A stretch of DNA of 20,650 bases from the NCBI GenBank assembly GCA_045105515.1, contig JBGCDR010000077.1, positions 1 through 20,650 of the forward strand. The letters run 5' to 3'. Shown one piece after another: positions 253 through 20,650 of the stretch. Position numbers and translations under genes: made by a program. Each line of letters opens with the position of its first letter. Positions within the stretch are counted from its first letter, which is position 1. This stretch comes from Oligoflexales bacterium. Its GTDB lineage: Bacteria > Bdellovibrionota_B > Oligoflexia > Oligoflexales > Bog-1112. Under the pieces are notes generated by a model. The model worked only from the letters and a program-made list of their open reading frames with translations, ran no database searches and was not told the origin of the DNA.

Positions 253-265
253 GAGGCTTGGCTTT

Positions 266-1087: not shown

Positions 1088-1414
1088 ATAAAATTCCTAT
1101 ATTTAGACAAGACAGATCAATGAATTCTTAATATATGACTTACTAAAATTAGAGAGCAATTATTACTGCGGTCTTACCTCCAGGTCATTTTTTTTCAAAA
1201 AAAAAACGATGGTATAACATCGTTGTTATTCTACTTCTTCTTATTGATGAGTTTCTTTTTTTCAATTTAGCATGCAATATTAGCATTGAAAGACAAAACC
1301 CCAGAAAATAGCTTTTACTCTCATGTAGAGATAGACTATCCTGAACAGCTTGCCAAGAAAAAAATTTTTAAATGTCCCTAAGTGCCCAAGAGGTCGAAGG
1401 AATTAATAAAAGCT

Positions 1415-1443
1415 TTGAACATCAGACTACTATCCACTATAAT
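1415..1443 (+). promoter_or_regulatory. Sigma70-type promoter for the GST gene
   Basis: TTGAAC (1415-1420), a 17-nt spacer and TATAAT (1438-1443), 32 nt upstream of the TTG start at 1476. Confidence 0.6.
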
Positions 1444-1475
1444 CCACGCTTTTTTAATCATGTGAGACGATAAAC

Positions 1476-2090: not shown

Positions 2091-2284
2091 TAATTCTCAA
2101 CCTTGTTTTTACAATTTTCATCTACTTTTGCACCACAAATTTGGCAGTCACCATCATCACTCTGATACACATTATTAAGCCCTCCACACGAGCCAGAAAT
2201 AGGCTTGCGCTTGAAGATAACCCCTACTGACATTGCAAGGATCACCAAGCTAAAAGTGACAAAGACAACAAAAAAAGTACCCAT
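2087..2284 (-). CDS. nqrM: Na+-NQR maturation factor NqrM (DUF539)
   Basis: A single transmembrane helix followed by MSVGVIFKRKPISGSCGGL and further Cys residues (CQIC, C). It lies directly after apbE in the nqr operon. Confidence 0.92.
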   Translation of the reverse strand: MGTFFVVFVTFSLVILAMSVGVIFKRKPISGSCGGLNNVYQSDDGDCQICGAKVDENCKNKVENY

Positions 2285-2285
2285 T

Positions 2286-3365: not shown

Positions 3366-3369
3366 ACTT

Positions 3370-4593
3370 TTAACCCCCAAAATCATCCAGCATAATGTTT
3401 TCTTCCTCGACACCTAGATCAAGTAGCATATTGATGACAGCTGTGTTCATCATTGGTGGTCCACATAGGTAGTATTCAAGGTCTTCTGCATTAGGATGGT
3501 CTTTTAGATAATTCTCATATAGCACCTGATGTATAAAACCAGTATCACCGGTCCAATTATCTTCCTTGAGGGGGTCAGACAGTGCAACATGCCAAGTGAA
3601 GTTCTCATTCTCTTCTTGCAGCTTGTCGAAATCCTCGGTGTAGAACATCTCACGCTTGCTCCGGGCACCGTACCAGAAAGTCATTTTGCGTTTAGTGTGA
3701 ATACGCCTGAGTTGATCAAAAATATGGGAACGCATTGGCGCCATACCCGCACCACCACCGATAAACACCATTTCATTATCAGTTTCCTTGGCAAAGAACT
3801 CACCAAATGGCCCAGAAATCGTAACTTTATCACCAGGCTTTAGATCGAATATATATGAAGACATGATACCAGGCGGTGCACTATCCATACGAGGAGGTGG
3901 TGTAGCTATCCTAACGTTGAGCATGATAATACCCTTTTCCTCAGGATAGTTTGCCATTGAGTAAGCTCTTATGGTTGTGTCGTCAACCTTGGACTTGTAC
4001 TTCCACAAATTAAACTTATCCCAATCACCTTTGTACTCTTCTTCAACTTTAAATGATTTGAAGTCAAGTTCATGGGGAGGGCATTCAATTTGGATAAAAC
4101 CACCAGCTCGGAAGTCTACATTCTCTCCAGCAGGTAATTCTAAAACCAGCTCTTTGATAAAGGTAGCAACATTTTCATTGGAACGAACCGTACATTCCCA
4201 CTTACGACAGTCAAAAACCTCAGCGGGAACTTCTATACGCATATCTTGCTTACAAGCCACTTGGCAAGAAAGTCTGACTCCTTCTTTGGCCTCCTTTTTA
4301 TTAATATGCGATTTTTCGGTAGCAAGTAAATCACCACCTCCTTCGAGCACTTTCACTTTGCATTGAGCACAAGTTCCCCCACCACCACACGCTGAGGAAA
4401 CAAATATCTTTTCAGAGGCGAGTGCATTAAGAAGTTTTCCTCCTGCTGGCACCTTGATTGCTTTAGAGCTATCATCATTGATAAGAATATTAATATCACC
4501 ACTAGCAACCAACTTAGACCTTGCGAGCAGGATAAAAGCCACCAAACATAAGATGACAGTGGTGAACATAAAGACACCGAGCACTATTTCCAT
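3370..4593 (-). CDS. nqrF: Na+-translocating NADH:quinone oxidoreductase subunit F
   Basis: N-terminal transmembrane helix, 2Fe-2S motif [12 protein letters not shown]...RLSCQ, FAD motif RAYSMAN, NAD motif [15 protein letters not shown] and C-terminal DDFGG; 407 aa. Confidence 0.98.
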
Positions 4594-4633
4594 TAATCTA
4601 TCCTTTTTATAACTGGTCCGAGAAATTGACCGA

Positions 4634-5242
4634 CTACAGCTGAATTCCTGAAAAAGCCATAAACCCTAGCGCCATCAAACCAACAGTAATAAAGGTGATC
4701 CCCAGCCCTTTTAGACCATCTGGAACATCGCTATATTTGAGCTTCTCACGAATCCCAGCTAAAGCTGCAATAGCCAAAGCCCAACCAAAACCTGAACCTA
4801 GACCATAGACAATACTTTCTGTGAGGTTGTAATCCCTCTCCACCATAAATAAGCTGCCACCAAGAATGGCGCAATTTACAGTAATGAGGGGCAAGAAGAT
4901 GCCCAAAGCGTTGTATAGCGGTGGAAAAAACTTATCCAAAAACATTTCCAGGATTTGGACTATCGCCGCAATTACACCAATGTAGGAAATAAGTCCCAAG
5001 AATCGCAAATCAACATTTTCTAGACCAGCCCAGGACAAAGCCCCTTCGTTAAGAAGATATTGATAAATCACATTATTAACAGGTACCGTAATAGTTTGGA
5101 CCACAATAACTGCGACACCCAAGCCAACTGCGGTTTTTACCTGCTTAGAAACGGCTAAAAAAGTACACATCCCGAGAAAAAATGCTAAAGCCATATTTTC
5201 AATAAAAACGGCCTTAATAAATAAATTAATATAATGCTGCAC
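4634..5242 (-). CDS. nqrE: Na+-NQR subunit E
   Basis: [31 protein letters not shown] and C-terminal FSGIQL; position in the operon. Confidence 0.97.
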
Positions 5243-5247
5243 GATCT

Positions 5248-5874
5248 CTACCCCTCATGTTCTACTTGGTCTTTTTTCCAGGACCGCAGTAACCAAATGA
5301 ATAAGCCAATGATAAAAAAGGCACTTGGCGGTAAGAACATTAAGCCATTAGGAACATACCAGCCATTTTCGCTTGCCAAAGGCAGGATCTGCACATCGTA
5401 AAGCTTTCCGCCACCAAAAAGTTCTCGGATAACCCCAACAAAAAATAGTACCGCACTATATCCTAAACCATTGCCAATGCCATCAAGCAAGCTAGGGATT
5501 GGAGGGTTTTGCATGGCAAAAGCTTCTGCCCGACCCATCACTATGCAGTTGGTAATAATTAGTCCCACAAATACAGAAAGTTCTTTGCTCACGGAAAACA
5601 TGAAAGCTTTTAATATCTGATCAACTAAAATCACCAGGGAGGCAATGATAGCCATTTGCGCAATGATACGAATGCTATTCGGTATATAGTTTCTGATCAA
5701 ACTCACAGAAAAGTTCGATAAGGCAACCACAAAAATCACGGCTATGCACATAGTGGTAGTGGTTTTGAGATTCGATGTTACAGCCAACGCAGAACAAATT
5801 CCAAGAATCTGTAATGCAATGGGGTTGTTTACGAAAATAGGACCCAGAAGGATATCCTTACTTTTGTCCGCCAT
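5248..5874 (-). CDS. nqrD: Na+-NQR subunit D
   Basis: [36 protein letters not shown] and PPSAFF; position in the operon. Confidence 0.97.
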
Positions 5875-5887
5875 TTAATATAACTCC

Positions 5888-6664
5888 CTATGATTTTTCT
5901 TTAATGTGTTCAAAATAGTTTTTAAATCCATTTTCGCCAAGCCAGAAGCGTACCATATGACTTACCCCACGAGCTGTAATGGTAGCTCCCGACAAGCCAT
6001 CAACCTGATGAAGAGCCTCTTCACGGGCAAGGTCAACCTTGCCTTTAATGACCTCAATCTGTAGGTTTCCTGCTTTATCACGGATCTGCTTACCTTTCCA
6101 GCTAGCCTTCCAATTAGGATTATCCACCTCACCACCAAGGCCAGGTGTTTCTCCGTGTTCATAATAACCGAGGCCTTTTATTGTATTGCCATCAGAGCTT
6201 ACCGAGACAAAACCATATAAAGTCGACCAAAGACCTTTACCATGAATTGGAACCACCACCTGATCAAGCTTGCCATCTTTCTCAACTTCGTAGACGACAG
6301 CATAGCGGGCTATCATCCGCAAGCCAGCAAGATCGACTTTAGGGTCAAGCACAACCCTTTCCTCTGAGTTTTTAGATTCTTTATACTGATCATACTCTTG
6401 GGCATCCTGGCCTTCAACATAGCTACCATCAGCTAAATTAACCAGCTTAGGCTGCACAAACTTCTTAAACAATTTTTCTACTTCAGCACCTTCTTCATAG
6501 AGAGAGGCTGCCATTAAAATGTTGGTTTTCTTATCCAGAGCTTTGTTCTTTTCCTGGATAGGTCGTAGCTTGACTGCGGCAACCGAAACAATCACCGAGC
6601 ATACTAAACTCAGAGTAGCGGCGATTATTATAGTTTGCTTTACCGTATCTTTTCCTTGACTCAA
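5888..6664 (-). CDS. nqrC: Na+-NQR subunit C
   Basis: N-terminal transmembrane helix, GKGLWS, HGETPGLGGEV and the covalent-FMN motif VDGLSGATIT. TTG start with a GGAAGGGG ribosome-binding site. Confidence 0.97.
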   Translation of the reverse strand: MSQGKDTVKQTIIIAATLSLVCSVIVSVAAVKLRPIQEKNKALDKKTNILMAASLYEEGAEVEKLFKKFVQPKLVNLADGSYVEGQDAQEYDQYKESKNSEERVVLDPKVDLAGLRMIARYAVVYEVEKDGKLDQVVVPIHGKGLWSTLYGFVSVSSDGNTIKGLGYYEHGETPGLGGEVDNPNWKASWKGKQIRDKAGNLQIEVIKGKVDLAREEALHQVDGLSGATITARGVSHMVRFWLGENGFKNYFEHIKEKS

Positions 6665-6687
6665 GTTTAACCCCTTCCTAGTCGGTC

Positions 6688-7902
6688 CTATTCAACAGCA
6701 GTACGAGCTTGTCTACGTTTGATATTAGCTTGAACTACGTAATAATCGATCAAAGGTGCAAATAAATTTCCAAATAAGATGGAAAGCATGACCCCTTCAG
6801 GGAAGGCAGGGTTGAGCGAACGCACAATAATTGACATAGCTCCTATAAGAAAGCCATAAACCCACTTGCCTGTCTTTGTCATTGCCGCAGACACAGGGTC
6901 TGTGGCCATAAAAACCATACCAAAAGCAAAGCTACCAATCACAAAATGCCATAAAGGGCTCACGCTAAACATGGGGTTAGTGCTGCTACCGGTACAATAA
7001 AGAAGGGTAGACACACTAAAGCCGCCAAAAAGCATACTTAGCATAATGCGCCAAGAGCCTATTCCCGTGGTAACCAGAAGGCCTGCTCCCATTAGGCAAG
7101 CTAGAGTGGAGGTTTCTCCCATGGAACCAGGAATAATTCCTAAGAACGAGTCCCAAAGAGAGAAACTCGCTTCAAGACCCTGAACACCATCTACTGCAGC
7201 AACTGCTAAAGCTGTTGCGCCGCTAAAACCGTCCACTGCAGTCCAAACAGCATCCCCAGAAATATCTGCCGGATAAGCAAAGAATAGAAACGCCCTTGCA
7301 GTCAAAGCTGGATTAAGGAAATTCTTACCAGTGCCCCCAAAGACTTCTTTGCCAATGATTACTCCAAAAGCAATACCCACTGCTACCTGCCACAAAGGAA
7401 TGGTTGGAGGTAGAGTTAAGGGAAAAAGGATTCCAGTTACCAGAAAGCCTTCGTTGATTTCATGCTTTCTTATGATCGAGAAGGTTGCTTCACAAATACC
7501 CCCAACTATGTTGGTGACTAAGAAGACTGGAACAAAATAAAGGGCTCCATGAGCCAAGTTTGAGAGAAAACATCCGGAATCGAAAGACAAACCCAACCAA
7601 GCTAGTACGATCCCTCGCCAGGTATCCAAGCTAGTGACACCCTGGGATTGTAGGATATGATTTGCCTGCAGGCCTGTGTTAAACATCGCCATAAATATGC
7701 AGGGGCCCAGAGCAACGCCAACGGTTACCATGATACGCTTCAAGTCAATGCTATCCCGCACATGACTTGCCCCCTTTGTTATCTCCCCGGGAGTAAACAA
7801 GAAGGTATCCGCCATTTCATAAAGAGGATAAAGCTTCTCTAACTTGCCTCCTGAAGAAAAATGCGGGTGAATCTGATCAAAAAAGTTTCGCAGTGCCTTC
7901 AT
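6688..7902 (-). CDS. nqrB: Na+-NQR subunit B
   Basis: [29 protein letters not shown] motif [15 protein letters not shown] and FMATDPVS. The likely start is ATG at 7902, 1 nt after the nqrA stop. Confidence 0.97.
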
Positions 7903-7903
7903 C

Positions 7904-9253
7904 CTACCCTTCCTTTTCAATGGTCGTAAGGATCTCCCTCAACATCGGCCCATATTCTACCTTACCTGGACATACAAATGTACAGAGACCTAAATCTTCT
8001 TCATCCAACTCTAAGGCTCCAAGTAATGCAGCCTGCTCAGTGTCCTTAGACAAAAGTGAGCGCAACAAAAAAGTTGGCTCTACATCTAAAGGCATCACTT
8101 TTTCGTAAGATCCCACAGGAACCATTGCTCTCACACTCCCACCTGTGGAAGTGGTAAAGGGAAAACGCCGTCCACCAGGCAACAGTTTTGAGAAAAAAGC
8201 ATTCTTGACAGAATACTTATCAAAACCTGGCATCTGCCATCCTAAAAGTTCTCGCTCTCTTCCTTCTTCTAGAACACACACCTGAAGATGGTATCGACCC
8301 AAAAAACTAAGTGGTCCCTGAGCATGATGACCGGAAAAAAGCGAACCTGAAACAACTCGAAGTTCAGCATCCTCTACCAGATCTTTACAGAGATCGTCAG
8401 TATTTGCCCCTAAAGGCACCTCGTATAAACTCGGATTTTTCACCATTGGTCCACCAAGAGAAATGACCCTCTTGCTCCAAAGCTTACCTGTGGTAAAGAG
8501 TTTTCCGATTCCAATTACATCCTGATAGGAAATATGCCAAACTGTTTTGCGTTCGCTAACAGGTTCGAGAAAGTGAATATGTGTCCCGACCAAACCAGCA
8601 GGATGCACCCCTGAAAAAGTGTTTACTTTCAACTTTTTGGGGAGCTCTTTAGGAAGATAGGTATGAGGATCATGACAGAGGTAAACCACTCCATCTGTGA
8701 GATGCTCTATAGTTTTCAGCCCATTTTCGAAGTCTTTCATATGAGCTTCAATGACAACCCCTGGATATGGAGACAGAGGATTGGTATCCATTGCATTAAC
8801 AAATATAGCTGCTGGCTTACTTTCCAGGCTTGGAATCCGACTGAAAGGTCTGGTTCGAAAACTAGTCCATAGACCTGATTTGACTAAATTTGCTTTTACT
8901 TTTTCAAGGCCTAAGCTACTTAGCTCGGAATTCTTGTAGGAATCGAAGGAAACGGCTTCGTCTTTACCATCCAGCTCTATCTGCACTGATTGCAGCGCTC
9001 TACGATTACCTCGATTAATTGCCGCAACTTTTCCACTTGCAGGTGCAGTGAAGATAACCCCAGGGTTTTTTTTGTCAGAGAATAATTCTTGGCCAGATTT
9101 AACCTCTTCTCCCACCTTGACTGCCATAGTCGGTTTCATGCCCACATAGTCATCTCCAATGACTGCCACAGATCTGATGTTCGGACACTCACCCAGCTCC
9201 TGCCTTGGTTCCCCCTCGATGGGCAAGTCAAGGCCCTTCTTAATCTTTATCAT
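7904..9253 (-). CDS. nqrA: Na+-NQR subunit A
   Basis: [12 protein letters not shown] start with a GGAG ribosome-binding site before ATG at 9253. Also [38 protein letters not shown] and C-terminal IEKEG. Confidence 0.97.
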
Positions 9254-9311
9254 ACGTCTCCGTTCCTGTGTTTCACCCATGTGGGTTCTGGCTGAATCAT
9301 AAGCTATTGGC

Positions 9312-9339
9312 AATGTACCAATTTCTATGATTCAAGCAA
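9312..9339 (-). promoter_or_regulatory. Candidate sigma70 promoter of the nqr operon
   Basis: The minus strand has TTGCTT-N16-TACATT with an extended -10 TG, about 60 nt upstream of the nqrA ATG. Confidence 0.3.
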
Positions 9340-10064
9340 CCAAGTTTTACCCGCATCACCCACGCCTTCAAGCAAGAATAATGTAGCAAGGGCGCTACCC
9401 TTCAGCTAAAACTTTTTTCTGACCTAAATTTTGGCTGAAAATGCAAAGTATAGCACAACTGCATGAAAGCATCTGTTCGCGTGATCTTTTTTTAGGCATG
9501 AGCCTTAGCACGGAACATTTTAGACTTAGAAGCTTTGCTGTATATGATAACTTGCACGTCGTGAAGGGCGACAACTTTTGTTGAACTATGATCGGCATTG
9601 AGTCCAGACAGATAAAAATCATTCTCCAAAATTTACTGTCTGCACCGGTTCTAAAATTTTTCTAAGACTTATTCCAATATTTTTCATCTTCTGTATTATT
9701 TCAGCTTACTACATTTCTTCATTACGTTTAAAACATAGAGATAGAAATCGATAAAATTGTTGAATGATTTACAAAATAATTAAAAAAACCCTCTTTTTAA
9801 GGAATAATATCTGTTCCAATGAATTAGGTTGTTTATAATTGAAAAAATCTTATTAGGAGGGACTTTAAAGTATTATTCTCTAAGTAGGTACTGCTTCAGA
9901 CATCCAATAGCAATGGCAAATTACTTAAAATTTTTGTTATAATACATTTACATTTTTGTATAGCTTTTGGATCTATAGATATTCGTATTTACCATAAAAA
10001 ACAAACCAGGAAGTGGCATACAGACACATAGTAGGTTTGCAATTTTCTACTATCAGGAGCAAAG

Positions 10065-12908
10065 ATGACTGAAAAGTTTATTTCCATCAGGAAGAAGATG
10101 CTCCTGATCGTCTCACTGATTATTGCAGTCGCTGCTATATTTATGATCGTAGGCACTGCATGGTCAGGAAAAAATCGTTTTGAAAACGCAACTCAGAAAC
10201 AATTCGACCTTTCCATCAGCCTAACCAAGCTTACTATTAACCAACTCTTATCTGATGTCAAGACAGGGCTGAATGGACTAAATAACAACGCCGAACTCTC
10301 ACGAGACCTCATCACAACACTCACTGCACCAAAGCCCAGACGCAGAAATTTCTACAAATTTTTTTATTTGATATATGAATTTTCAAAAGATTATAGTCTA
10401 AGTCAAACCACTATCCACTTAAAATCCTCGGGAAGAGAAAATTTTCAAATATATTCCCTTTCAGATTTGGCTGCAGATAAAGTTCTAAGCTTTTCCACAA
10501 AGCTTGGAGAAAACGGCAAAAAACAAATCCAGCTTACTCGAGATAAATTTGGCTTCATTGGCCGTGATAAAGAAGCTGAAAAAATCACTGAATACAGCTT
10601 TCCTCATACTCTCCGCAATGATAAAACCCCAGCAATATTCCATACAAATGAAAAAAAACTCTTTTTTGACATTCAATACAATTTGGTCAATCACTTGATT
10701 GGCAAGAAAAAAGAAGATCAAGAAAGTGAAGAAGATAATCAAGAAGATAATGGGTTTGCTAGTCTAGGGATGACCTACGGAATCATCCGCACTTTTGCTG
10801 AATTGAAACCAAATTTTTTAGAGAATTTAGAAAAACAAGCTGGTGTTCACCTAGATATATTCTCAAACAGCGGGGCTCATCTTTTAGGAAATTTAAGCTC
10901 AAATCCATCAATGGATGAGTTAAAGGATGGTGAGTTTTTTTCCCTCCTATCACAAAAAAATAAATATATTAGTCAAGGGTCACCAATCGAAGTCGAAGGT
11001 AAAAAGGTCGGTTTTTTAGTCAGTTCAGTACCACAATCTCAATTAACAAGCGAAATCATTAGTATTGCTTTCCAACTCATCGCAATAATCTGCATCACCT
11101 GTAGTCTTGGGGTAATATTTATCAGCTTATTCTTAACTAAGACAATTACCAACCCACTTCTTCTTTTAGGGAAGTCGGTAAAAAAATTAGCTGCTGGAGA
11201 ACTTACTCACCAGGCAGCTATTACGATTCATGATGAAATAGGCTCACTGGCACTTTCAGTAAATAAAATGGCAAGCGATTTGAATGTCGCATTTCATACC
11301 ATTGAGGATCAAAAACATAATCTAGAACTCAGGGTTGAAGAACGAACCAAAGAGGTTCAGGAAAAAAGTCAAAATGTTCGGGTCATGCTGAGTAATCTCC
11401 AACAAGGGGTATTTATCCTTCTAGCTGGTAATTACATCGACAAAGAGTATTCCAATCATCTTTGTGAAATCATGGAAACCGACGATATTTCTGGAAATAA
11501 TCTGGAAGACTTTCTTCTTGAAAATAGCGACTTAAGTACGGATGCTAAGTCTGCTGTGACTGCAACCCTGGTTAACACCATTGGTGAAGAAACGATCATG
11601 TACGATCTTAATTATCCAAATTTGGTTACCGAGCTAGAAAAAAAGGTAAACAATAAATATAAGAGTTTAGAAGTAGACTGGAATCCCATTGTAAATGACG
11701 ATATTGTAAGTAAAATGATGGTCACTATCCGAGATGTCACTGAGCTTAAAAAACTGCAACTCCAAGCAATGAATCGAAGACGGGATTTGGAAATCATCGG
11801 TCAGATCATTGCAATCACTCCTGCTAAATTCAAGCAATTTATGACCGGATCTCACAAGTTGCTTGAGTCATCCCGTGAGATTTTAGAAAAATGTGACTCT
11901 CCTGATGACTTAAATGCACTCTTTCGCAACATGCACACAATTAAGGGAAATTCTAGGATTTACAATTTTACGATAATTTCAGACAAATCTCATCAAGTGG
12001 AAGTTATTCTCGATAAGTTGAGAAAAGATCCGCCCAAAATACTTCCAAAGGAACAACTCATTGCAGAATTCGACTCATTGAAAAATACCTTACAGCACCA
12101 TGAAAAAATCAATAGGGAAGATCTGGGTCGAGAAGCAAACTCTGAGCAAATTGACCCAGATTCTGTAATGGTACAACTTGATGTGGTGTCTGAAGCTCTC
12201 TCTCTTTTAAAAAATATCAACTCCAGTAGCATTGAAACTCTGCGTAACAACACAAGCTTAGTTATGCAACATTTACTTCGCATTGGCAGTCAACCCCTTT
12301 CCGAAATGATCTCGGGTGTAACAGAATCTATTCCATCGCTAGCAGAAGAGCTTGGTAAGTCAATTCCAGTTATCAAAATAGACAATACCTGCTTATTACC
12401 CAAATTAGCTATTTCCGAGCTCCTAAACGATATTTGTATGCACATATTTCGGAATGCTATCGATCACGGAATTGAACCTGAAAACGAGCGCAAAAAACTT
12501 GGAAAGCCCTCCCATGGTGCAATCAATTTATCAGTAAAGAATGACGGAGAAATGGTTGTCTTTCTCTTTTCTGACGACGGAGGTGGCTTAAATCTAAAAT
12601 TACTTATGGAAAGAGCACAGGAAAAAGGTCTACTGCAAAAAGAGGTTACTCTGAGTAATCAAGGAGCGGCAAATCTAGTATTCGTACCTTCAATATCCAC
12701 AGCGTCAAAGGTAACAAAAATATCAGGACGTGGGGTGGGTATGGACGCTGTCGCATCTTTTGTAAAGAATTATCATGGTGAAATAAAGCTGAATTTGCTT
12801 GGTGAGCTAAAAAATGAACGCATCCCTTTTGAAATAGAGATCCAGCTGCCGAAAAAGTACTTTACTGAAATCGAGCTAGAAAAGATGAGCGTTGCACTAG
12901 ATGCCTAA
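10065..12908 (+). CDS. Membrane-bound CheA-like histidine kinase (TM - extracytoplasmic sensor - TM - HAMP - PAS-like - Hpt - HATPase)
   Basis: AGGAG ribosome-binding site and two hydrophobic segments. HAMP (ITNPL...LAAGEL...DEIGSLALSVNKM), Hpt (LFRNMHTIKGNSR) and CheA-type ATPase boxes (HIFRNAIDHGIE, DDGGG, SGRGVGMDAV) are recognisable. Confidence 0.88.
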   Translation: MTEKFISIRKKMLLIVSLIIAVAAIFMIVGTAWSGKNRFENATQKQFDLSISLTKLTINQLLSDVKTGLNGLNNNAELSRDLITTLTAPKPRRRNFYKFFYLIYEFSKDYSLSQTTIHLKSSGRENFQIYSLSDLAADKVLSFSTKLGENGKKQIQLTRDKFGFIGRDKEAEKITEYSFPHTLRNDKTPAIFHTNEKKLFFDIQYNLVNHLIGKKKEDQESEEDNQEDNGFASLGMTYGIIRTFAELKPNFLENLEKQAGVHLDIFSNSGAHLLGNLSSNPSMDELKDGEFFSLLSQKNKYISQGSPIEVEGKKVGFLVSSVPQSQLTSEIISIAFQLIAIICITCSLGVIFISLFLTKTITNPLLLLGKSVKKLAAGELTHQAAITIHDEIGSLALSVNKMASDLNVAFHTIEDQKHNLELRVEERTKEVQEKSQNVRVMLSNLQQGVFILLAGNYIDKEYSNHLCEIMETDDISGNNLEDFLLENSDLSTDAKSAVTATLVNTIGEETIMYDLNYPNLVTELEKKVNNKYKSLEVDWNPIVNDDIVSKMMVTIRDVTELKKLQLQAMNRRRDLEIIGQIIAITPAKFKQFMTGSHKLLESSREILEKCDSPDDLNALFRNMHTIKGNSRIYNFTIISDKSHQVEVILDKLRKDPPKILPKEQLIAEFDSLKNTLQHHEKINREDLGREANSEQIDPDSVMVQLDVVSEALSLLKNINSSSIETLRNNTSLVMQHLLRIGSQPLSEMISGVTESIPSLAEELGKSIPVIKIDNTCLLPKLAISELLNDICMHIFRNAIDHGIEPENERKKLGKPSHGAINLSVKNDGEMVVFLFSDDGGGLNLKLLMERAQEKGLLQKEVTLSNQGAANLVFVPSISTASKVTKISGRGVGMDAVASFVKNYHGEIKLNLLGELKNERIPFEIEIQLPKKYFTEIELEKMSVALDA

Positions 12909-12936
12909 CAATTCAGTATTTTTTTACCGATTATCG

Positions 12937-14136
12937 TCAATATCCTGCCAACTTACGTTCAAGCAATTGATCCAACTCTGCTATCATTGTCATAGTCAGA
13001 TGATTTTCTTTAAGGGTCCACTCACCCAGTTGCTCTTGCTTAAACCTCTGCCAACTTCTTTGTGAATCGAAAGCTCCTGAATATAATTCCTCGTTTTTTA
13101 AATCTTTGGAAATAGTCTGATAAATTTCGGGCAAGATCTTATCAACAATTCTTAGCAATTTCAGGAGGGCAACTTTTTCTGAAGTCCGGAAGGACACTCT
13201 GCTCATATCTATGGTTTCTAAAGATTGCTTTCGTGCTTTTTTGACTTCACGACTGCTACCAGAACACCAAGTTTTAAATCTAAAATCCCTTAGCACTATT
13301 TCTTTTGGGGACATGTTAACTTGATTTTGAAACACAATGCTCCTCAACTGCCAAAGGGCAGAAGGGCTCAAATACTTATCTTCAAATTGGCTTTCAGCTT
13401 GCTGTTTTACTTTATAAAAAGGTTTATTGAATTTACGGTCCAAGTAGTAGAAATAAAGCAGCGGAGCCCCTGAAGATGCGGCACTCAGGGCACTAATACT
13501 TGCTGCAACTCCTACATTCAACCCATAACACCTTACTGCCCGCTTCGAAGATACCCAAATTTCCGTCAAAATCTCAATACCGACTATCTCACTGGTAAAT
13601 AACATCAGAGCCAAGGTGCATTGAATATGACAATTCCAATCTTGATTAGAAATTTCACTTTCTTTTTTTAGAAGAAAAGCCCTGATCTTTTGACCTAAAA
13701 TTTCAGAAATAAATTCTAGATGCAAGTTGCCCCCAGCTCCTTCACCTAAACTTGCATTGATTTGCTCGGAAGTACTTTCTTGCCATATTAGGTTATAGCG
13801 GGAAATTGGGGTACTCTGTAATATTTCTTCGAACCGGTTATATTTTACAACTTTTTGAGTCTTGTAAGCTTTGGTTTTGAGAAATTCCTGCATAAAAAGG
13901 AAAGTCTCATCTTCAAGTTGCACTCCATTGAAGGAACCTTTTCTCAAGAATTCTTTAACTTTATCGTCCTTTAAGAACATATCTTCTAACCTGAGCACTT
14001 CACTAACTGAAAGAAACGAAAACACTCTTCCGAGGATCTCGTCCGAAAAAGGAGTTAAGTTCCCTTCTGAAGCATTCGCTGCCGCTCCAATATTCCCTGC
14101 TAACAAGGTAAAAAATAGCACTACCTTTAATTTCAT
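12937..14136 (-). CDS. Secreted hypothetical protein with an N-terminal F-box-like motif
   Basis: 399-aa ORF with a GAGGG ribosome-binding site. Signal peptide MKLKVVLFFTLLAGNIGAAANA is followed by LTPFSDEILGRVFSFLSVSEVLRL. Confidence 0.7.
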   Translation of the reverse strand: MKLKVVLFFTLLAGNIGAAANASEGNLTPFSDEILGRVFSFLSVSEVLRLEDMFLKDDKVKEFLRKGSFNGVQLEDETFLFMQEFLKTKAYKTQKVVKYNRFEEILQSTPISRYNLIWQESTSEQINASLGEGAGGNLHLEFISEILGQKIRAFLLKKESEISNQDWNCHIQCTLALMLFTSEIVGIEILTEIWVSSKRAVRCYGLNVGVAASISALSAASSGAPLLYFYYLDRKFNKPFYKVKQQAESQFEDKYLSPSALWQLRSIVFQNQVNMSPKEIVLRDFRFKTWCSGSSREVKKARKQSLETIDMSRVSFRTSEKVALLKLLRIVDKILPEIYQTISKDLKNEELYSGAFDSQRSWQRFKQEQLGEWTLKENHLTMTMIAELDQLLERKLAGY

Positions 14137-14177
14137 TAGGCCCTCTAATTATTAAAATAACTATAAATTAATTCTGA

Positions 14178-14796
14178 TCACTCTTTCATATATTCAATGT
14201 TTATAAAAATTTGCTCAAGCTTACTTAGCCATCTATCAACAAGCTTAAATTCGATAGTGCCAAATAACTCCCTCTGTTTCCAAGCTTCAATAGTTTCTAG
14301 GAATTGTTCAGAATTATAAACACCTTTTTCTGTCGGATAAAAATCATTAATCGAACCATAAGCATCATTTAGGATAAGAGCAAAATTGGTATCTAAATAA
14401 GCAAGAGCGTATATTTGCGAATAATAGTGAGATTCATATGCGTTCTCACCAAATTTATCCAAGCTAAAAAGCATAGAAATAATTTTTCCCATCTCCCTTG
14501 TCGTTACGTTTTTTAGGTCTCTAAACCAATCATTATTCATCTTCATCACATAAGCTGAACATACTGTCGATAAATCTGCTAATTCTAGAAAAATCATTGT
14601 GAGAAAGAAAAGGCCACAGCTTTCGAGTGGAAGTCGTTTGATGTTCAATATGGACACAACGAGGGCTAAGTTCAAAACTGACCAAATTTTCTACAAAATA
14701 CCCTGAACTGCCACCTTCTAATTCAGATCTTAGCTTCGTACTACCATAGAGGTTTGCTGATGACAAAAGTTGTACTACCACTAACACCCATTTCAT
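14178..14796 (-). pseudogene. Frameshifted hypothetical exported protein split over two overlapping ORFs (pseudogene or sequencing error)
   Basis: The 5' frame starts at ATG 14796 (GAGG ribosome-binding site, signal-like MKWVLVVVQLLSSANLYG) and stops at 14533. The +1 frame is open from 14690 (KIWSVLNLALVV...) to 14178 and has no good start or ribosome-binding site of its own. Confidence 0.6.
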
Positions 14797-15082
14797 TTTA
14801 AACCTCAAAAACTACGAGTTGCAAAAACACCGTATTTACTATCAGAGGATTCAATAAAAGTGAAGATTTTATAAAGCTGTCGTTAATAGGTTCCCTTACT
14901 CGAACAAAGAATTTTGTAATTCGCTTCAAACATAATATATAGCGCTTATAAAAATAAGGGGCTTAATATCTCTGTCTTACCGTTTTTTTTATATTTTCGA
15001 GGTTTTGCACTTTGAGCATCGAGCTTTGAACTCTATAATGGCCATCAGGCACTGTTCCCATTGCTTGCAAGGATTAGTGAAT

Positions 15083-15991
15083 ATGAACCATCACCATCAC
15101 CATAGCCTTAAAGGCAAAAAACTTGCATGGACAATTGCACTCAATATGCTCATCACCCTATGCCAAACTGTTGCAGGGATTTTTTCGGGTAGCCTTTCTT
15201 TATTGAGTGACGCTTTACATAATTTTAGCGATGTTCTATCTCTTATTATTAGCTCAATTGCTGAGCGGCTTACCCAAAAAAAATTCAGCATGGATCAAAC
15301 CTTTGGCTATAAGCGCGCTGAAATAGTCGCTGCATTAATAAACGCCTCTACCCTCCTTGGGGTTGCATTTTTAATATGCAAAGAAGCGGTGGTAAGGTTT
15401 ATCCATCCAGAAGAAATCCACTCACCAACAGTTATAGCTCTCGCTGGACTTAGCATCTTAATTAACGCACTTAGCGTCTTGCTGCTTCAAAATGAGGCAA
15501 AAAAAAGCCTCAATATCCGTTCAGCTTACCTCCACCTTTTCTCAGATATGCTTACTTCCATTGTTGTTATGCTTGGAGGGATAGCCATATTCTGGCTCAA
15601 GGCCTACTGGATCGACAGCCTTCTATCGATTTTAATTGCAATATACCTAGTTTATTCTTCATGGCAGCTAGTGATGCAAACTCTGCGGGTTCTGATGCAG
15701 TTTACCCCAGCGCATTTATCAATTAAGGAAATAGAAACTGATGTTTTAAATTTTGAGCAAATTCAAAACATCCATCATGTCCACCTATGGCAATTAACGG
15801 ATCAAGACATCCATTTTGAAGCTCATTTAGATTTTTACAAGGACTTACCCTTAAGTGAAGCTTCTAAAATTCTGTCAGAAATTCGCAAACTTCTTGCTAG
15901 TAAGTTTAAGATTAAGCATTCGGTCCTCCAAGCTGAATATGGTGTTGATGACCCTAAACAGCTGGTTGCAGACCATTGCAACTTAAAATGA
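15083..15991 (+). CDS. czcD: Cation diffusion facilitator (CzcD/ZitB-like Zn/Co/Cd exporter)
   Basis: His-rich N-terminus MNHHHHH, SLSLLSDALHNFSD, TFGYKRAE, NIRSAYLHLFSD and IHHVHLW. The likely start is ATG at 15083 after AAGGA. Confidence 0.93.
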   Translation: MNHHHHHSLKGKKLAWTIALNMLITLCQTVAGIFSGSLSLLSDALHNFSDVLSLIISSIAERLTQKKFSMDQTFGYKRAEIVAALINASTLLGVAFLICKEAVVRFIHPEEIHSPTVIALAGLSILINALSVLLLQNEAKKSLNIRSAYLHLFSDMLTSIVVMLGGIAIFWLKAYWIDSLLSILIAIYLVYSSWQLVMQTLRVLMQFTPAHLSIKEIETDVLNFEQIQNIHHVHLWQLTDQDIHFEAHLDFYKDLPLSEASKILSEIRKLLASKFKIKHSVLQAEYGVDDPKQLVADHCNLK

Positions 15992-16585
15992 GGAACCAGG
16001 CTCCTTGAGGAAGCTTAACTCCTCCTCAGTACTTTCCCGAGCAAGAATCTCATTTCGATGGGGAAATCTTCCAAATCGTTCGATGATATCGTGATGTTTA
16101 ACAGCAAATTCATAAACGGACTCCATGACAGGTTTTGCATAGTCAGGGCATTTGTCTTTGAGGAGCTTAAAATGGTCCAGTCCTTGTTTCTGAGCGGCAA
16201 GATCTTCAGAATGCATGAAAGGCATGAGCGCAAATTGACCAAATACTGGCAGTACTTGTAAATACAATACTGAGTCTGCAAATAACTTGGCTACAGAGAG
16301 GGCCTTGGTATCAAAGTGAAAGGACTTAGCATGGCTCCGATAGATATTACGAGGAAATTGATCTAGCATAATGATCAGGGCCACACTCCCAAGGGGCTCA
16401 GAAATCCAGCGATCAAATGCGCCCATATATGCAGTATATAGGTACTCTGCAAATTTTTTTTTGACCACTTGATCAAACTCTTGGTCTTTTTTAAACCATC
16501 GGCTTGTGACTTCAGGCTTCACTTTCCCGTCCTCGCCGATTTCACCAAACCAAAATTCTAAAACTTTTTTTGCTAAAAACTCCAT
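15983..16585 (-). CDS. DUF924 family protein
   Basis: VLEFWFG, WFKKD..FD, IIMLDQFPRNIYR, MPFMHSED, HHDIIERFGRFPHRNEILARESTEEE and C-terminal PGSSF. Confidence 0.93.
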   Translation of the reverse strand: MEFLAKKVLEFWFGEIGEDGKVKPEVTSRWFKKDQEFDQVVKKKFAEYLYTAYMGAFDRWISEPLGSVALIIMLDQFPRNIYRSHAKSFHFDTKALSVAKLFADSVLYLQVLPVFGQFALMPFMHSEDLAAQKQGLDHFKLLKDKCPDYAKPVMESVYEFAVKHHDIIERFGRFPHRNEILARESTEEELSFLKEPGSSF

Positions 16586-16947
16586 GCAGTACAAACCTTT
16601 TCTACTTACTTTAATTCCACCACAATAGGAGACTATATACTCAAATCTAGCGTTTCATCAAGTCATCTCCGTTATCTGCAATACTGAAGTGCAGCAGAGC
16701 ACTGCCTTAATATCCGATTTTCTTGAAATTTTTAACACCTAAAAAAGCTAAACATAATTTAAAGTTATAAAACATATAGCATGCATAGGGTCGTTTTTAT
16801 ACCGGAAACATTTAATTATATTATATGTTTAGAAAAAAGTATTAGTTTAGGCAGGTAGAGTACCGAATAGAATACAGTAAGGTATGAACTAGTTTTCTAC
16901 ATGACAAGTTAGCCGAATTGATCAGCAATTTTTTGATCGGAAACACT

Positions 16948-17361
16948 ATGAATACGGAAAAAAGAAAAATAATTATAGCTGGGGATGATGAAAAATTACT
17001 AGAAACACTTTATTCGACCTTTGAGTCGGACTTTGAAGTGTTTTTAGCTAAGGACGAAAAAGAGGCATATGAAATATTTTTTCAAATAAGACCTTCGCTG
17101 ATTATCACTAGTTTTAAAATGAATATCATGGATGGAATAAATTTAACTAAAAAAATAAAGATGCTTTCTCCTAGCACTATCGTGTATTCAATTTGCAGCG
17201 AGAAAGAAACTATCGAACAGTCAGCAGAAGGCGGGCCTGATAAAATATTTGCAGAGAATGATTCTTCTTTATTTAATGAAGTCTGCAAATCGCTCGATAA
17301 TTACTCAGCTATAAACTCGTCACAATTCCCCCTGAAGATAGAAATACAGCTTGAAGCTTAA
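16948..17361 (+). CDS. Stand-alone receiver-like (REC) protein, atypical
   Basis: REC pattern KIIIAGDDEKL...FEVFLAKDEKEA...RPSLIITSFKMNIMDGINLTKKIK. The likely start is ATG at 16948. Confidence 0.8.
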   Translation: MNTEKRKIIIAGDDEKLLETLYSTFESDFEVFLAKDEKEAYEIFFQIRPSLIITSFKMNIMDGINLTKKIKMLSPSTIVYSICSEKETIEQSAEGGPDKIFAENDSSLFNEVCKSLDNYSAINSSQFPLKIEIQLEA

Positions 17362-17575
17362 TCCCAATCCGAAATTTTGATTATCCCTGTCATCCCCAAT
17401 TAAAGCTTTTTAGTAGATATCCCTCAAGTGTAGTTGTAAAATCCTGCAAAACTTTCAGGAGGTGACTTTTTTACGGCATTTGAGAATTATTTCCTGGATT
17501 CCTCCAAGAAATTTGTTAATTTCGTGACCTACATTAGACCTGCGGATATGACTATTTTTTGAAAAGGATAATAGG

Positions 17576-18439
17576 ATGAAAAAAAATTCATTAGTAAATA
17601 ATGCCTTTTTAATAGTATTGCTGCTAGTTTCTTTTTCCATATTTGGGGAAACTACAGATACATTAATTAAGCATTACTGGCTTAAGCAAGAGCGTAGTTA
17701 TTCTTTTAATAGTGGAAAAATAACGAAAATTGCCTTAGTCCTTTCGACGATTTTAGGGGGGCATGTTAAAGCTTTGGATTGCAATGTTTGTCGAAACGGA
17801 GGAGAAATTACTAATCCAGAAAATGAATTTACCATGACAAACTCAGCAGGTGAGGAGACTACCTGGACTTGCGGTTTTTTACAAGAATCCATGGCAGATG
17901 TAAAAGCTACAGGTGGAGCCCCTGGTGAAGCACGCTGGTGTGCCTTAGGGCAACTTTGGGCAGACAAGGAATGTTCATGCAGTGGAGACCCAGTACCAAC
18001 ACAACCACCAAAGGACCCCAATCCATCTTGTGATTTGTGCAAATCTCTCTCAGGTCAAGAAGCTTACGATTTTAACTACGTGCCCGTGGAATTGGAAGAA
18101 GAGCTTGTAGAAACCGAATTTTTCGGACGAATACCGTGTGGTGGCCTATATCTTGCTTTAGCTGAAGGAGTTATTAGTAATGATATTTGTCCGATATTGC
18201 GTGAGAAAGTTGGCAAACTCTGCTGTAATGCTCCTTTTTTAGATAAGGGTGACAATGAAGAATATTCATGTGGTAAGCTGCACGCCAATTGTTCTTCGCA
18301 GGCTTGCTGTTCTGCATTCACATGTAAAAGTAGATTTCTTGGCAGAGATCCCATTTGCTCATCTAAATCGAAAGGTCGGACAAGGCTTGGTTCAGGGTTT
18401 GGAGGAGCTGGTGGAAGGCAAAGGCATCAAGAAAATTAA
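17576..18439 (+). CDS. Secreted cysteine-rich protein: two 6-Cys domains and a C-terminal knottin-like 6-Cys module
   Basis: AAGGA ribosome-binding site and a signal peptide. 18 Cys in three groups of six, a Pro-rich linker and a Gly/Arg-rich tail. Confidence 0.8.
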   Translation: MKKNSLVNNAFLIVLLLVSFSIFGETTDTLIKHYWLKQERSYSFNSGKITKIALVLSTILGGHVKALDCNVCRNGGEITNPENEFTMTNSAGEETTWTCGFLQESMADVKATGGAPGEARWCALGQLWADKECSCSGDPVPTQPPKDPNPSCDLCKSLSGQEAYDFNYVPVELEEELVETEFFGRIPCGGLYLALAEGVISNDICPILREKVGKLCCNAPFLDKGDNEEYSCGKLHANCSSQACCSAFTCKSRFLGRDPICSSKSKGRTRLGSGFGGAGGRQRHQEN

Positions 18440-18484
18440 GACAAGCCTCTCATCCTATCATCACTAATGCCTTTCTTAGTAAGG

Positions 18485-18531
18485 TTAAGGGGATCTCCCT
18501 CAAGTATAAGAGGGAAAACAAGATACCTTAA
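18485..18531. other. Imperfect stem-loop between convergent genes, possibly a terminator
   Basis: Inner stem TCCCTC-AAGTATAA-GAGGGA with imperfect outer pairing TTAAGG(G)GATCT / AGATACCTTAA. A T-run follows shortly downstream. Confidence 0.3.
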
Positions 18532-18774
18532 GATGATCTTTTTTCGTTCGGTAGTTAAACTTGCGAGATAGATGAAGTAATATTTTATGATAAATAATGA
18601 AATATTTTACACAAAAAGAAAGTTAAGCTCAAACCTGCCACACAGTGAATCTTGGTCCATTAATCGGGATTCTGTGGTCCATTTGGCCCATTGATCGCAT
18701 TTCAATTTGTATTTATTCGGACTACCATTCGTTTGATGGAATGGATGAGCAAATTAGACAATAATAAAAATAAC

Positions 18775-20538
18775 TTATAAATCACAATTGTTTTTGTCTT
18801 TACATCTACCCAATATATCAATAAAGAAGTTTGGATTATTTTCTAGCACTTTATCAGGAGAATTTCCATTATAATAGTTCCAGTTGTGAGCTGGTTCTAT
18901 CGAGGTTCCTTCGCCCCACTCGTTAAATGTAGTTATCAGCTGCCAACTTGCATCCGATTGGACACATTCTTTAACAATATTTTCCCATTCTGATGCATCT
19001 CTTTTTAGAAATTTTCCATCATAATTGGATCTTCTGTATCCTGGAGCTATAGCACATGAACTTAAGCCATTCCATGGAGAGGAATCAAGATGATCATGCT
19101 TTTGAATTGAAGCATCAGGACCATATTGATGCCAAGAAAAAGTAACATAGTTGTCCTTGCTACTATCGCAAATTCTCCAATCACGAAAGACTTTCAATAC
19201 TACATGCCACTTAATTTTCGCTCGATTGGCAGCTTCTCTCCACCTGTTAACCAGTTCACACGTCTTATCATTGGCGCTATAAACGAAGATTATAGGTTTT
19301 GGATCATCATTTGGTTCTTCTATGTGAGCATAGACTTCTCTATATTTATCGACAAAATTGGTTTCTATATATTCAAAGTCTGATTGCAACTCGTCAACTT
19401 TTAAACCAGTATCAAATCCCTCTTTTTCATAATAGAGGGCCCATTTAAGTTCAGGATTATCCTCTCTAGTTAATTCAAGCAATTTTGGAAGACTTTCACC
19501 TTCTCTACCCTGCCCCCACCAGGATACAATCCCCATATCCACGTGAGCATTATCTAAGTATTCTAAATGTCTCTTAATGACATCTTCATCACTGCTATGA
19601 TACCTAGAATTTTTGTCATTTTTATAGTCAGCATTATTTTCTCTATCGTACCATGTTTCATACATTACCATATCATCTTTGACAGTCCAGGTATTAGGAA
19701 ACCAAAGGTAATAAAATGCACCTCTAACTGGGAAGCTCAAAGCGCTATTTTGCTCAACGTTATCGTCTGTTTTGCCGTCGTCATTATCAGTAAAAATAAT
19801 TTTGGAACTTGCTACAATCTTATTCCCACATTGGAGTAACAATTGCCCTTTAAGGTTTACACCGAGTTTAACGTCTGGATCACTGCATGTACCGTTCATT
19901 ATTTCTTCACGACCATCTTTTCCATCAACTATTAACCTAGCTAGGTTACCGCCTACTGCAACGAGCAGGCTAGTATTTTGCTCTTGTACTCGATCTTCAC
20001 CAAAGAATCCTGCTTCGCGAATCACTTCCTCAAAGGGGCCCTTATTTACACCGTCTTTATTTATAACAATGTTTCCATCAGCCTGATATAATACTTGAAG
20101 CGGACCATAACTGAGGAATACTTGATCTGGAGATACTCTTTCATTTTTAGGCCAGGTTTTTAATTCAAATAATTCTTTAGATCGTGCGACAATACCAGAT
20201 CCACAATAGAGCAATAACTGACCTAATAAGTTAACTTCAAGTCGAACATCTGGATCATTGCAAGAGCCACTCATCAACTCTTTGCTACTAGTTTTTCCCT
20301 CAACTATTAAGCTAGCTAGGTTACTGCCTTGAGCAAGTACTAAATTTGTATTGTGCTCCTCCACATTATCTTCACCAAAGAATCCTGCTTCGCGAATTTT
20401 TTTCTCAAATGGGCCTTTGTTTGTACCATTTTTTCTTATGACAATATTTCCATCTGCTTGATAGACTGCTTGTACATCTCCGATATCTAAAAATATTTGA
20501 TCAGGTTCTACTGCTCGGTCATGTCCAATTTGACCCAC
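18775..20538 (-). CDS. GH99-like (endo-alpha-mannosidase/mannanase-like) glycoside hydrolase with two N-terminal bulb-lectin-like repeats; 5' end uncertain
   Basis: C-terminal domain with AFYYLWF, YHSSDEDVIKRH, GIVSWWG, IAPGY and WQLITTFNEWGEGTSIEPA, which matches the GH99 ITSFNEWxEGTxIEPA motif. The N-terminal 125-aa tandem repeat carries YQADGNIVI in each copy. Confidence 0.8.
   Translation of the reverse strand: MGQIGHDRAVEPDQIFLDIGDVQAVYQADGNIVIRKNGTNKGPFEKKIREAGFFGEDNVEEHNTNLVLAQGSNLASLIVEGKTSSKELMSGSCNDPDVRLEVNLLGQLLLYCGSGIVARSKELFELKTWPKNERVSPDQVFLSYGPLQVLYQADGNIVINKDGVNKGPFEEVIREAGFFGEDRVQEQNTSLLVAVGGNLARLIVDGKDGREEIMNGTCSDPDVKLGVNLKGQLLLQCGNKIVASSKIIFTDNDDGKTDDNVEQNSALSFPVRGAFYYLWFPNTWTVKDDMVMYETWYDRENNADYKNDKNSRYHSSDEDVIKRHLEYLDNAHVDMGIVSWWGQGREGESLPKLLELTREDNPELKWALYYEKEGFDTGLKVDELQSDFEYIETNFVDKYREVYAHIEEPNDDPKPIIFVYSANDKTCELVNRWREAANRAKIKWHVVLKVFRDWRICDSSKDNYVTFSWHQYGPDASIQKHDHLDSSPWNGLSSCAIAPGYRRSNYDGKFLKRDASEWENIVKECVQSDASWQLITTFNEWGEGTSIEPAHNWNYYNGNSPDKVLENNPNFFIDILGRCKDKNNCDL
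19792..20511 (-). repeat. Intragenic tandem duplication with a 375-nt (125-aa) period
   Basis: aa 10-124 align without gaps to aa 135-249 (PDQ.FL, YQADGNIVI, NKGPFE..IREAGFFGED, C.DPDV.L.VNL.GQLLL.CG). An identical 30-mer, ATCTTCACCAAAGAATCCTGCTTCGCGAAT, occurs at 19993-20022 and 20368-20397. Confidence 0.95.
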
Positions 20539-20650
20539 CCAGTCATGTAAAACTGACCCACCACGGAGCCATAGGCGACGACCTTAAAAATCTCCTATCA
20601 GCTTAATATTGAATCAGCAACATTATTGAATGATTTACGATAAGAATCTC

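Follow-up and report, generated by a model that had tools for sequence, protein, structure and literature searches.

The window analysed here, 20,650 nucleotides (nt) long, is the whole of contig C77 of a metagenome-assembled genome (MAG) of an Oligoflexales bacterium (G000; 6.29 Mb in 461 contigs, 90.9% complete, 4.83% contamination). The open reading frame (ORF) 17576..18439 on its forward strand, stop codon included, encodes a Cys-rich protein of 287 amino acids (aa), P0001, whose 18 Cys residues are distributed over three modules of six. This is a resident, intact gene of a member of the Bdellovibrionota, and it shares recent ancestry with a diatom protein family. The 18 Cys, the two similar six-Cys domains, the third module, the Pro-rich linker and the tail listed in a preliminary description of this DNA were all recovered in the ORF, which is arranged as follows.

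17565..17568, +: Shine-Dalgarno-like AGGA, 7 nt ahead of the ATG (visible in the sequence itself)
17576..18439, +: whole gene of the Cys-rich, putatively secreted protein P0001 (ORF, homologues, host-typical codon usage)
17576..17647, +: aa 1-24, putative Sec-type signal peptide (MKK, hydrophobic core and FG/E; alignment; predicted helix 8-20)
17648..17716, +: aa 25-47, spacer of the N-terminal extension (alignment; predicted local distance difference test, pLDDT, of the model about 50)
17717..17773, +: aa 48-66, second hydrophobic segment KITKIALVLSTILGGHVKA (alignment columns 56-80; matches the N-terminal signal peptides of relatives)
17774..17986, +: aa 67-137, Cys domain 1 (C69, C72, C99, C122, C133, C135; predicted beta-hairpin and two helices)
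17987..18022, +: aa 138-149, Pro-rich linker, ending in a conserved DPN(P) motif ahead of domain 2
18023..18235, +: aa 150-220, Cys domain 2 (C152, C155, C188, C205, C216, C217; predicted beta-beta-alpha-alpha, as domain 1)
18236..18268, +: aa 221-231, short acidic linker
18269..18358, +: aa 232-261, predicted inhibitor cystine knot (ICK, knottin) module (C-x6-C-x4-CC-x4-C-x10-C; family Pfam, PDB profile and fold matches)
18359..18436, +: aa 262-287, basic Gly-rich tail SSKSKGRTRLGSGFGGAGGRQRHQEN (family-wide R-x-R ... GG(A/G)(A/G)GR-x-R motif)

Cysteine makes up 6.3% of P0001, against a median of 1.2% and a 99th percentile of 4.7% among the 4227 ATG-initiated ORFs of at least 150 aa in the genome, where the protein ranks 10th. 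Given this rank, the conservation of the Cys columns among homologues and database hits down to E 8e-120, the Cys arrangement is not a product of chance. The patterns of domain 1 (CNVC..WTC..RWC..ECSC) and domain 2 (CDLC..IPC..DIC..LCC) are truly alike, although as homology the likeness is only weakly significant (hhalign E 0.011, with five Cys in register across 60 columns). The spacing of the third module, C232-x6-C239-x4-C244C245-x4-C250-x10-C261, follows the six-Cys C-C-CC-C-C order of ICK peptides and of Pfam family PF07740 (Toxin_12). Scans of positions 17300-18900 found no terminator, and promoter-like sites were no more frequent there than in shuffled sequences.

Logan per-run assemblies of three runs, which belong to one study and are possibly the source of the MAG, were produced by an assembler independent of that used for the MAG. 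In them, single contigs of 9.7, 20.3 and 20.2 kb bridge the gene together with both its neighbours, and positions 14000-20539 are covered with 0 differences at flat depths of 11.3, 34.9 and 36.7. These three contigs show no break at the gene boundaries, the sign of misassembly against which the preliminary description had warned. A single low-depth record in runs X1 and X2 agrees with the window up to position 17600 and then continues into unlike sequence, with bin depth up by about 0.7-0.8; it may represent a minor strain variant or a branch of the assembly graph. Position 17600 lies in the A-rich start of the gene.

The neighbouring genes are bacterial and include nqrA-F with apbE, a glutathione S-transferase, a HAMP/Hpt/HATPase kinase, a cation diffusion facilitator (CDF) transporter, a DUF924 protein and a receiver-domain protein. 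Positions 262-9355 align with contig C4 of G010, a genome of the same genus, over 9154 nt with 76% identity, and the DUF924 gene is 74% identical; NqrA of G010 is 100% identical to an NCBI protein labelled 'MAG: ... [Oligoflexales bacterium]'. The tetranucleotide composition of C77 correlates with that of the genome at r = 0.991 (rank 129 of the 169 contigs of at least 10 kb). The codon score of the gene falls at the 58th percentile of 2943 host ORFs, and its G+C content at third codon positions (GC3) is 0.293, compared with a genome mean of 0.335 +/- 0.044 and 0.32-0.48 at diatom-type loci. The bridging contigs, the bacterial collinear flanks and the host-like tetranucleotide and codon usage thus make misassembly or contamination very unlikely.

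A word-indexed search with P0001 returned 16 proteins at E<=0.01, query included, and an exhaustive search of 1.84 billion representatives returned 111 at E<=1e-3, 72 at <=1e-10 and 14 at <=1e-30. A 16-sequence alignment of the family, whose profile (A1) gives P0001 a score of 334 bits, shows a collinear arrangement all the way from the first Cys to the C-terminal end: two six-Cys domains with a DPNPxCxLC junction, a linker of variable length, the C-C-CC-C-C module and a tail of the form R-x-R ... GGAAGR-x-R, present in P0001 as GRTRLGSGFGGAGGRQR. The first 10 Cys (C69 to C205) are among its 28 invariant columns, and the remaining 8 Cys are conserved in at least 90% of sequences; P0001 carries all 28 invariant residues and all 18 Cys. 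PF07740 matches 9 of the 16 aligned members (best E 1.5e-05), P0001 not being among them, and is also precomputed for one MMETSP member.

All five family members that bear an organism name come from diatoms of the Bacillariaceae, in agreement with the likeness to diatom or stramenopile secreted proteins proposed at the outset. Two belong to Nitzschia inconspicua (P0010 and P0129, on scaffolds of 6.36 Mb and 2.97 Mb), one to Nitzschia sp. MMETSP0014 (P0012) and two to Fragilariopsis kerguelensis MMETSP0733 (P0058/P0140). P0010 is labelled 'ion channel inhibitory toxin', an automatic annotation and the only one in the family. When the clusters of 30 representatives were looked up, organism names were obtained for only one further cluster, the rest being ENA, JGI or Logan assemblies without an organism name. 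P0001 is 37% identical to P0010 over 82% of its length (E 2.3e-39) and matches P0004 with E 1.4e-63. Its closest homologues are P0002 (65% identical, on a 71 kb contig) and P0003/P0125 (61%, on a 212 kb contig), which are probably orthologues in unsampled congeners. The label 'bacterial-like', considered for P0021, P0025 and P0030 on account of their lipobox-like N-termini, is weak and was not retained; P0021 and P0025 lie on contigs of 1.5-1.7 kb, as short as those of the presumed eukaryotic sequences, and lack the knottin. Literature searches found no published work on diatom knottins or on the P0001 family.

The N-terminus distinguishes P0001 from most of the family. Nearly all relatives have one signal peptide straight before the first Cys, whereas in P0001, P0002, P0125 and P0005 this segment is internal and is preceded by about 47 extra residues with a signal-peptide-like start of their own; P0001, P0002 and P0125 share the same peculiar layout. 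The beginning of P0001 can be divided into n-, h- and c-regions (MKK, AFLIVLLLVSFSIF and G/E), with cleavage expected after FG and before E, and among the family this leader (aa 1-24) is confined to bacterial-type members. The second hydrophobic segment is a probable relic of an ancestral signal peptide, because the relatives have their N-terminal signal peptides at this place in the alignment. Since there is no in-frame ATG, GTG or TTG between codons 36 and 66 of the ORF, an upstream start is needed. The linker that separates the knottin from the CC pair of domain 2 is also unusual; its 14 aa are the shortest seen, while most relatives have 20-74 aa of low complexity. In the family the tail is flanked by basic residues, and diatom members mostly end in Gly plus one residue, as P0012 does (...ARTRPRVSIAGTGIGGAAGRVRAGK). 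We take this layout to resemble prohormone-type processing and amidation.

The AlphaFold2 model of P0001, built with 144 sequences, has a mean pLDDT of 80.5, with values above 90 over most of residues 70-220 and 240-265. Domains 1 and 2 modelled alone reached a pLDDT of 92.1 and a predicted template modelling score of 0.83, each folding as a beta-hairpin followed by two helices. The best fold matches of this two-domain model (VIA Z 3.5, to unrelated helical pieces; Foldseek E 1.3 against PDB and 0.33 against BFVD) were not accepted, and domains 1 and 2 appear from the model to be novel beta-beta-alpha-alpha Cys domains without a convincing match in PDB or BFVD. A search of the ESM Atlas with P0001 gave no usable feature match, and its structural rows, with template modelling scores (TM) <=0.32, were disregarded.

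The C-terminal module is predicted, by its Cys spacing and model fold, to be an ICK knottin with putative 1-4, 2-5, 3-6 connectivity. Its model (residues 230-265) has a pLDDT of about 89-95 and superposes on purotoxin-1 (2kgu) over 35/35 residues with a root-mean-square deviation of 1.9 A and a Z of 3.8, a low value owing to the small size of the domain; among other ICK toxins it also matched psalmotoxin, with a TM of 0.75 by target. A phmmer search of PDB sequences with P0001 gave 0 hits at E<=10. The family profile gave 29 weak sequence hits in PDB, all of them small ICK peptides and every one an animal toxin by name, the best being Xt3a (7rz3; E 0.0018). The PF07740 matches within the family and the profile and fold matches in PDB thus agree with the knottin originally recognised in the third module.

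The broad set of bacterial homologues that the preliminary description had set against its own reading was not found. The A1 profile matched G000 only, that is one of 16 genomes of the family, one of 95 of the order and one of 131 of the phylum. Two pattern-plus-tblastn scans of 185,579 GTDB species genomes, able to detect only carriers of the chosen motifs, gave 29 and 7 stretches, none of which was confirmed. Plasmids and phages gave no tblastn match, and none of 43 pattern stretches on viral contigs was confirmed. The same-genus genome G010, 94% complete, has no A1 match; its contig is collinear with the window up to the DUF924 gene and then carries different genes, indicating that the gene for P0001 sits in a variable region. 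A JGI metagenome contig (L003; GC content 52%) encodes a partial family member without the Gly-rich tail at 2-505 (+), only 20 nt from an IS630-family transposase at 526-1623 (-) (276.9 bits; cut-off 100). Judging from this neighbouring transposase, at least one other bacterium carries the family.

A scan of G000 for Cys-rich ORFs revealed three further proteins, encoded at C246:2057-2677 (+) (206 aa), C309:436-996 (-) and C437:1663-2406 (+), and G010 has counterparts of such divergent paralogues on two contigs, C544 and C630. When these paralogues are aligned with the family their Cys fall in register (hhalign E 0.031 for C246), and their scores against a 144-sequence profile are 17-35 bits. 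The C309 protein ends in ...GRGGAAGRNRGGR, and both C309 and C630 keep the GGAAGR tail motif of the family. C246 and C309 have two successive hydrophobic N-terminal segments, as P0001 does; a bacterial leader upstream of a second hydrophobic segment is apparently present in at least three members, with the alignment to signal peptides of relatives shown for P0001. The C246 type occurs in two of the 131 phylum genomes, both from the genus of P0001. In a tree calculated without C437, and subject to a long-branch warning, C309/C630 and C246/C544 form a long-branch clade apart from P0001. With these sequences, the genus comprises at least two lineages of the superfamily, one old and one, represented by P0001, much closer to diatom-type sequences. 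The Atlas cluster nearest to C246 is a Bacillariophyta cluster (score 0.77), which is a lead only.

Phylogeny was analysed with a quick tree of 86 rows and a careful tree of 46 rows, the latter unrooted and without an outgroup. The clade of P0001, P0002 and P0125 received 99-100% support over both trees (support value 100/99). The paralogues of N. inconspicua fall in two deep clades. Most of the sequences without an organism name that group with the P0001 clade lie on contigs of about 1-3.5 kb that contain little besides the ORF; like the named diatom proteins, they have Gly/Asn/Pro/Ser/Thr-rich linkers of 22-74 aa and arrays of sequons, whereas the P0001 clade has an ordinary linker of 14 aa. 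Their motifs were absent from the GTDB species genomes in the pattern scan. On the grounds of the short contigs, the low-complexity linkers with sequons and the absence of these motifs from the GTDB species genomes, such neighbours of P0001 are provisionally read as eukaryotic. In an approximately unbiased test, placing six bacterial-looking rows, a group picked after the tree was seen, in one clade gave p 0.043.

The convergent neighbour of the gene, at 18775-20538 (-), encodes a protein of 587 aa with two N-terminal repeats of about 130 aa that contain YQADGNIVI, a sequence that we take to resemble the bulb-lectin motif QxDxNxVxY; Pfam gave no lectin match in this protein. Its C-terminal part is distantly related to GH99 endo-alpha-mannosidases (PF16317, E 2e-9; PDB 4acy, E 3.3e-8). 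This GH99-like neighbour is present in two of the 95 genomes of the order, G000 and G010, its architecture being rearranged in G010. The last 139 nt of the window (20512-20650) occur with 100% identity at 14 places in G000, almost all of them contig ends, and have depths of 389, 1272 and 1436 in the three runs, roughly 34-39x those of the contig. This repeat forms the end of a 1380-nt Logan contig, and C309, which carries one of the divergent paralogues, ends in it as well. It probably belongs to a multi-copy insertion element, from which the gene is separated by about 2 kb.

Of the stretch 9355-15983, the otherwise collinear G010 contig retains no more than 90 nt, a remnant of the CDF gene. 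In the window this stretch contains the HAMP/Hpt/HATPase kinase (10065-12908), two ORFs without a family (12937-14136 (-) and 14178-14675 (-)) and the CDF transporter. Rfam found nothing in the window.

Elsewhere the genome encodes enzymes that could form disulfides: a VKOR domain (PF07884) fused in one frame of 395 aa to a DsbA-like thioredoxin (PF13462) at C298:2746-3786 (-), and a DsbA-like protein. DsbB and DsbC_N were not found in G000, which is 90.9% complete. Two small Cys-rich proteins have a signal-peptide-like start: the product of C303:14274-14987 (+) matches zf-C3HC4 with 28.3 bits (cut-off 21), and that of C57:11620-12264 (-) has RING and IBR matches below their cut-offs. The RING-type domains of both are of eukaryote type. 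Another protein, of 313 aa (C121:3167-4108 (+)), combines a signal-peptide-like start and a Cys-rich N-terminus with a violaxanthin de-epoxidase lipocalin domain (PF07137; 55.6 bits, cut-off 25.7). PF07137 occurs in 8 of the 131 phylum genomes, in 7 of them above the cut-off, and in none of the control genomes above the cut-off.

We consider it reasonably likely that P0001 is a secreted protein captured from a diatom and now exported as a factor that acts on an alga. The ancestral gene would have been acquired from a diatom by an Oligoflexales bacterium, after which its codon usage would have shifted to that of the host and its low-complexity linker shrunk. It would also have gained a new 5' end, with a ribosome-binding site, a start codon and a bacterial signal peptide upstream of the fossil, now internal, one. 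Sec would export the product, and oxidation in the periplasm would form about nine predicted disulfides, with the VKOR-thioredoxin fusion and the DsbA-like protein as candidate catalysts; the product would then be released or displayed as a very stable three-module protein with a basic Gly-rich tail. As an alga-directed factor it could mimic the diatom's own secreted protein and engage the partner of that protein, or its knottin could block a surface receptor or channel.

In a published report, Oligoflexales are described as attaching to, entering and replicating in the stramenopile alga Nannochloropsis (PMC12865303). A role on an algal partner is proposed for P0001 on the basis of such reports, the GH99-like neighbour and the signal-peptide-bearing RING-finger proteins; it is plausible and would suit a bacterium that attacks algae or lives attached to them. 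A more far-reaching version, which we put forward tentatively and think rather doubtful as a whole, is that the genus captured such genes repeatedly. An old divergent set (C309/C630, C246/C544 and C437) and the younger P0001 would then all be exported, hyperstable mimics, the knottin being active on a diatom receptor or channel.

The opposite course of events, in which the family arose in the bacterial lineage or an unsampled relative, passed to the Bacillariaceae and expanded there, P0001 then being a native or re-acquired bacterial gene, has to be weighed against capture from a diatom, and a number of observations speak for it or at least against a diatom donor. A branch with 95/93 support in the careful tree separates the four named diatom rows from the P0001 clade, which falls in a poorly resolved group together with 19 sequences without an organism name; no named eukaryote is found on the side of P0001. 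The eukaryotic label of these 19 is our own reading, and P0002, P0003/P0125, P0005 and P0006 are likewise taken as bacterial by inference. P0001 itself matches no family in Pfam or NCBIfam, in Pfam not even at E<=1. The older, very divergent clade that occurs in both G000 and G010 might point to a bacterial origin, and the family member beside the IS630 transposase on L003 implies mobility of the family among bacteria. Transfer from bacteria to diatoms is, moreover, the commonly reported and well-documented direction, as stated in a diatom study (bioRxiv 10.1101/2023.03.06.531300).

A bacterial origin nevertheless appears unlikely to us. The close family is limited to one of the 131 phylum genomes and the divergent clade to two of them, within one genus, and the pattern scans yielded no confirmed match in another GTDB species genome. 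The diatom-type side of the family is far more diverse, with the N. inconspicua paralogues in two deep clades. In the bacterium, both the reduced linker and the extra leader in front of a segment like a signal peptide have the appearance of derived traits. ICK modules are characteristic of eukaryotes, and the PDB hits of the family profile are all animal toxins by name. For these reasons the diatom-to-bacterium direction is, in our judgement, clearly favoured. Of the eukaryote-to-bacterium transfer put forward in the preliminary description, the exchange between diatoms and the bacterium is thus well supported; its direction, with the named diatoms across the 95/93 branch, is inferred and not proven. 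That diatom DNA was wrongly joined to, or binned with, a bacterial contig would be compatible with a fragmented MAG of nearly 5% estimated contamination, with a sample labelled 'plant metagenome', in which algae are possible, and with the low-depth record diverging at 17600. Such an artefact is hardly credible, however, in view of the identical, uniformly covered assemblies from three runs, the bacterial flanks collinear with a congener, the host-like codon usage and GC3, and the bacterial type of the ribosome-binding site and leader. A protein of the same origin might also serve in another way, as a toxin or antimicrobial carrier against grazers, competitors or prey bacteria, or as a structural surface protein. 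Some solved ICK relatives, tachystatin B and Ep-AMP1 for example, are indeed peptides with insecticidal or antimicrobial action, and a diatom target of P0001 is conjectural. We regard these roles as improbable, since the retention of the full three-module diatom architecture and tail motif favours the same partner over a generic toxin, while the repeat-bearing GH99-like neighbour and the secreted RING-finger proteins hint, though no more than that, at dealings with a eukaryote.

If P0001 was captured from a diatom, several consequences follow. Gene flow from a microalga to a free-living or predatory bacterium has rarely been shown, whereas flow from bacteria to diatoms is well known, and the protein concerned here is an extracellular multi-disulfide protein and not a cytosolic-domain effector. 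It offers a candidate molecule for the way in which Oligoflexales, reported to kill microalgae, deal with stramenopile hosts. The gene would be a natural example of the refitting of a foreign secretory gene for bacterial export, in which a leader was added, the old signal peptide left as a fossil, the linker shortened and codon usage shifted. Attention is also drawn to an uncharacterised family, expanded in diatoms, in which a knottin is combined with two domains without a solved structural relative. Should a diatom target be found, it would constitute a new ligand-receptor or toxin-channel pair in diatom biology; if the mimicry reading is true, P0001 would be a molecular mimic, with a fold not yet in PDB, of a protein that serves the alga extracellularly in signalling or defence.

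The closest known counterparts of P0001 are the diatom proteins P0010, P0012, P0129 and P0058, which share with it, in collinear order, the two six-Cys domains, the DPNPxCxLC junction, the ICK module and the GGAAGR tail. In these diatom forms a lone signal peptide immediately precedes the first Cys, the Gly/Ser/Gln/Pro linkers are long and the C-terminus is mostly Gly plus one residue, while P0001 has an added leader of 47 aa, a linker of 14 aa and AT-rich codons of the host type. Another diatom protein, the adhesive-trail protein CaTrailin3, is described as carrying extracellular repeats that have six conserved Cys and match no known domain (bioRxiv 10.1101/2023.03.06.531300); any relation of these repeats to P0001 is at most a lead.

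The spider, remipede and anemone ICK toxins (PF07740; 2kgu, 7rz3 and psalmotoxin in 4fz1) have the same six-Cys C-C-CC-C-C spacing and fold as the third module. They are, however, free peptides of 30-40 aa, whereas the knot of P0001 is the C-terminal module of a 220-aa multidomain protein and lies below Pfam detection. Any channel activity of P0001 is putative.

Eukaryote-like secreted and effector proteins gained by interdomain transfer are known from bacteria of the Legionella and Chlamydiae type. P0001 resembles such acquisitions in being a eukaryote-type gene in a eukaryote-associated lineage, with a patchy distribution, host-like codons and a location in a variable region. The Legionella and Chlamydiae effectors consist of cytosolic domains and are injected by type III or type IV systems, whereas P0001 is a putatively Sec-exported, extracellular, disulfide-rich protein with a diatom as its likely donor. 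Both the host lineage, Oligoflexales, and the P0001 family are new for this phenomenon.

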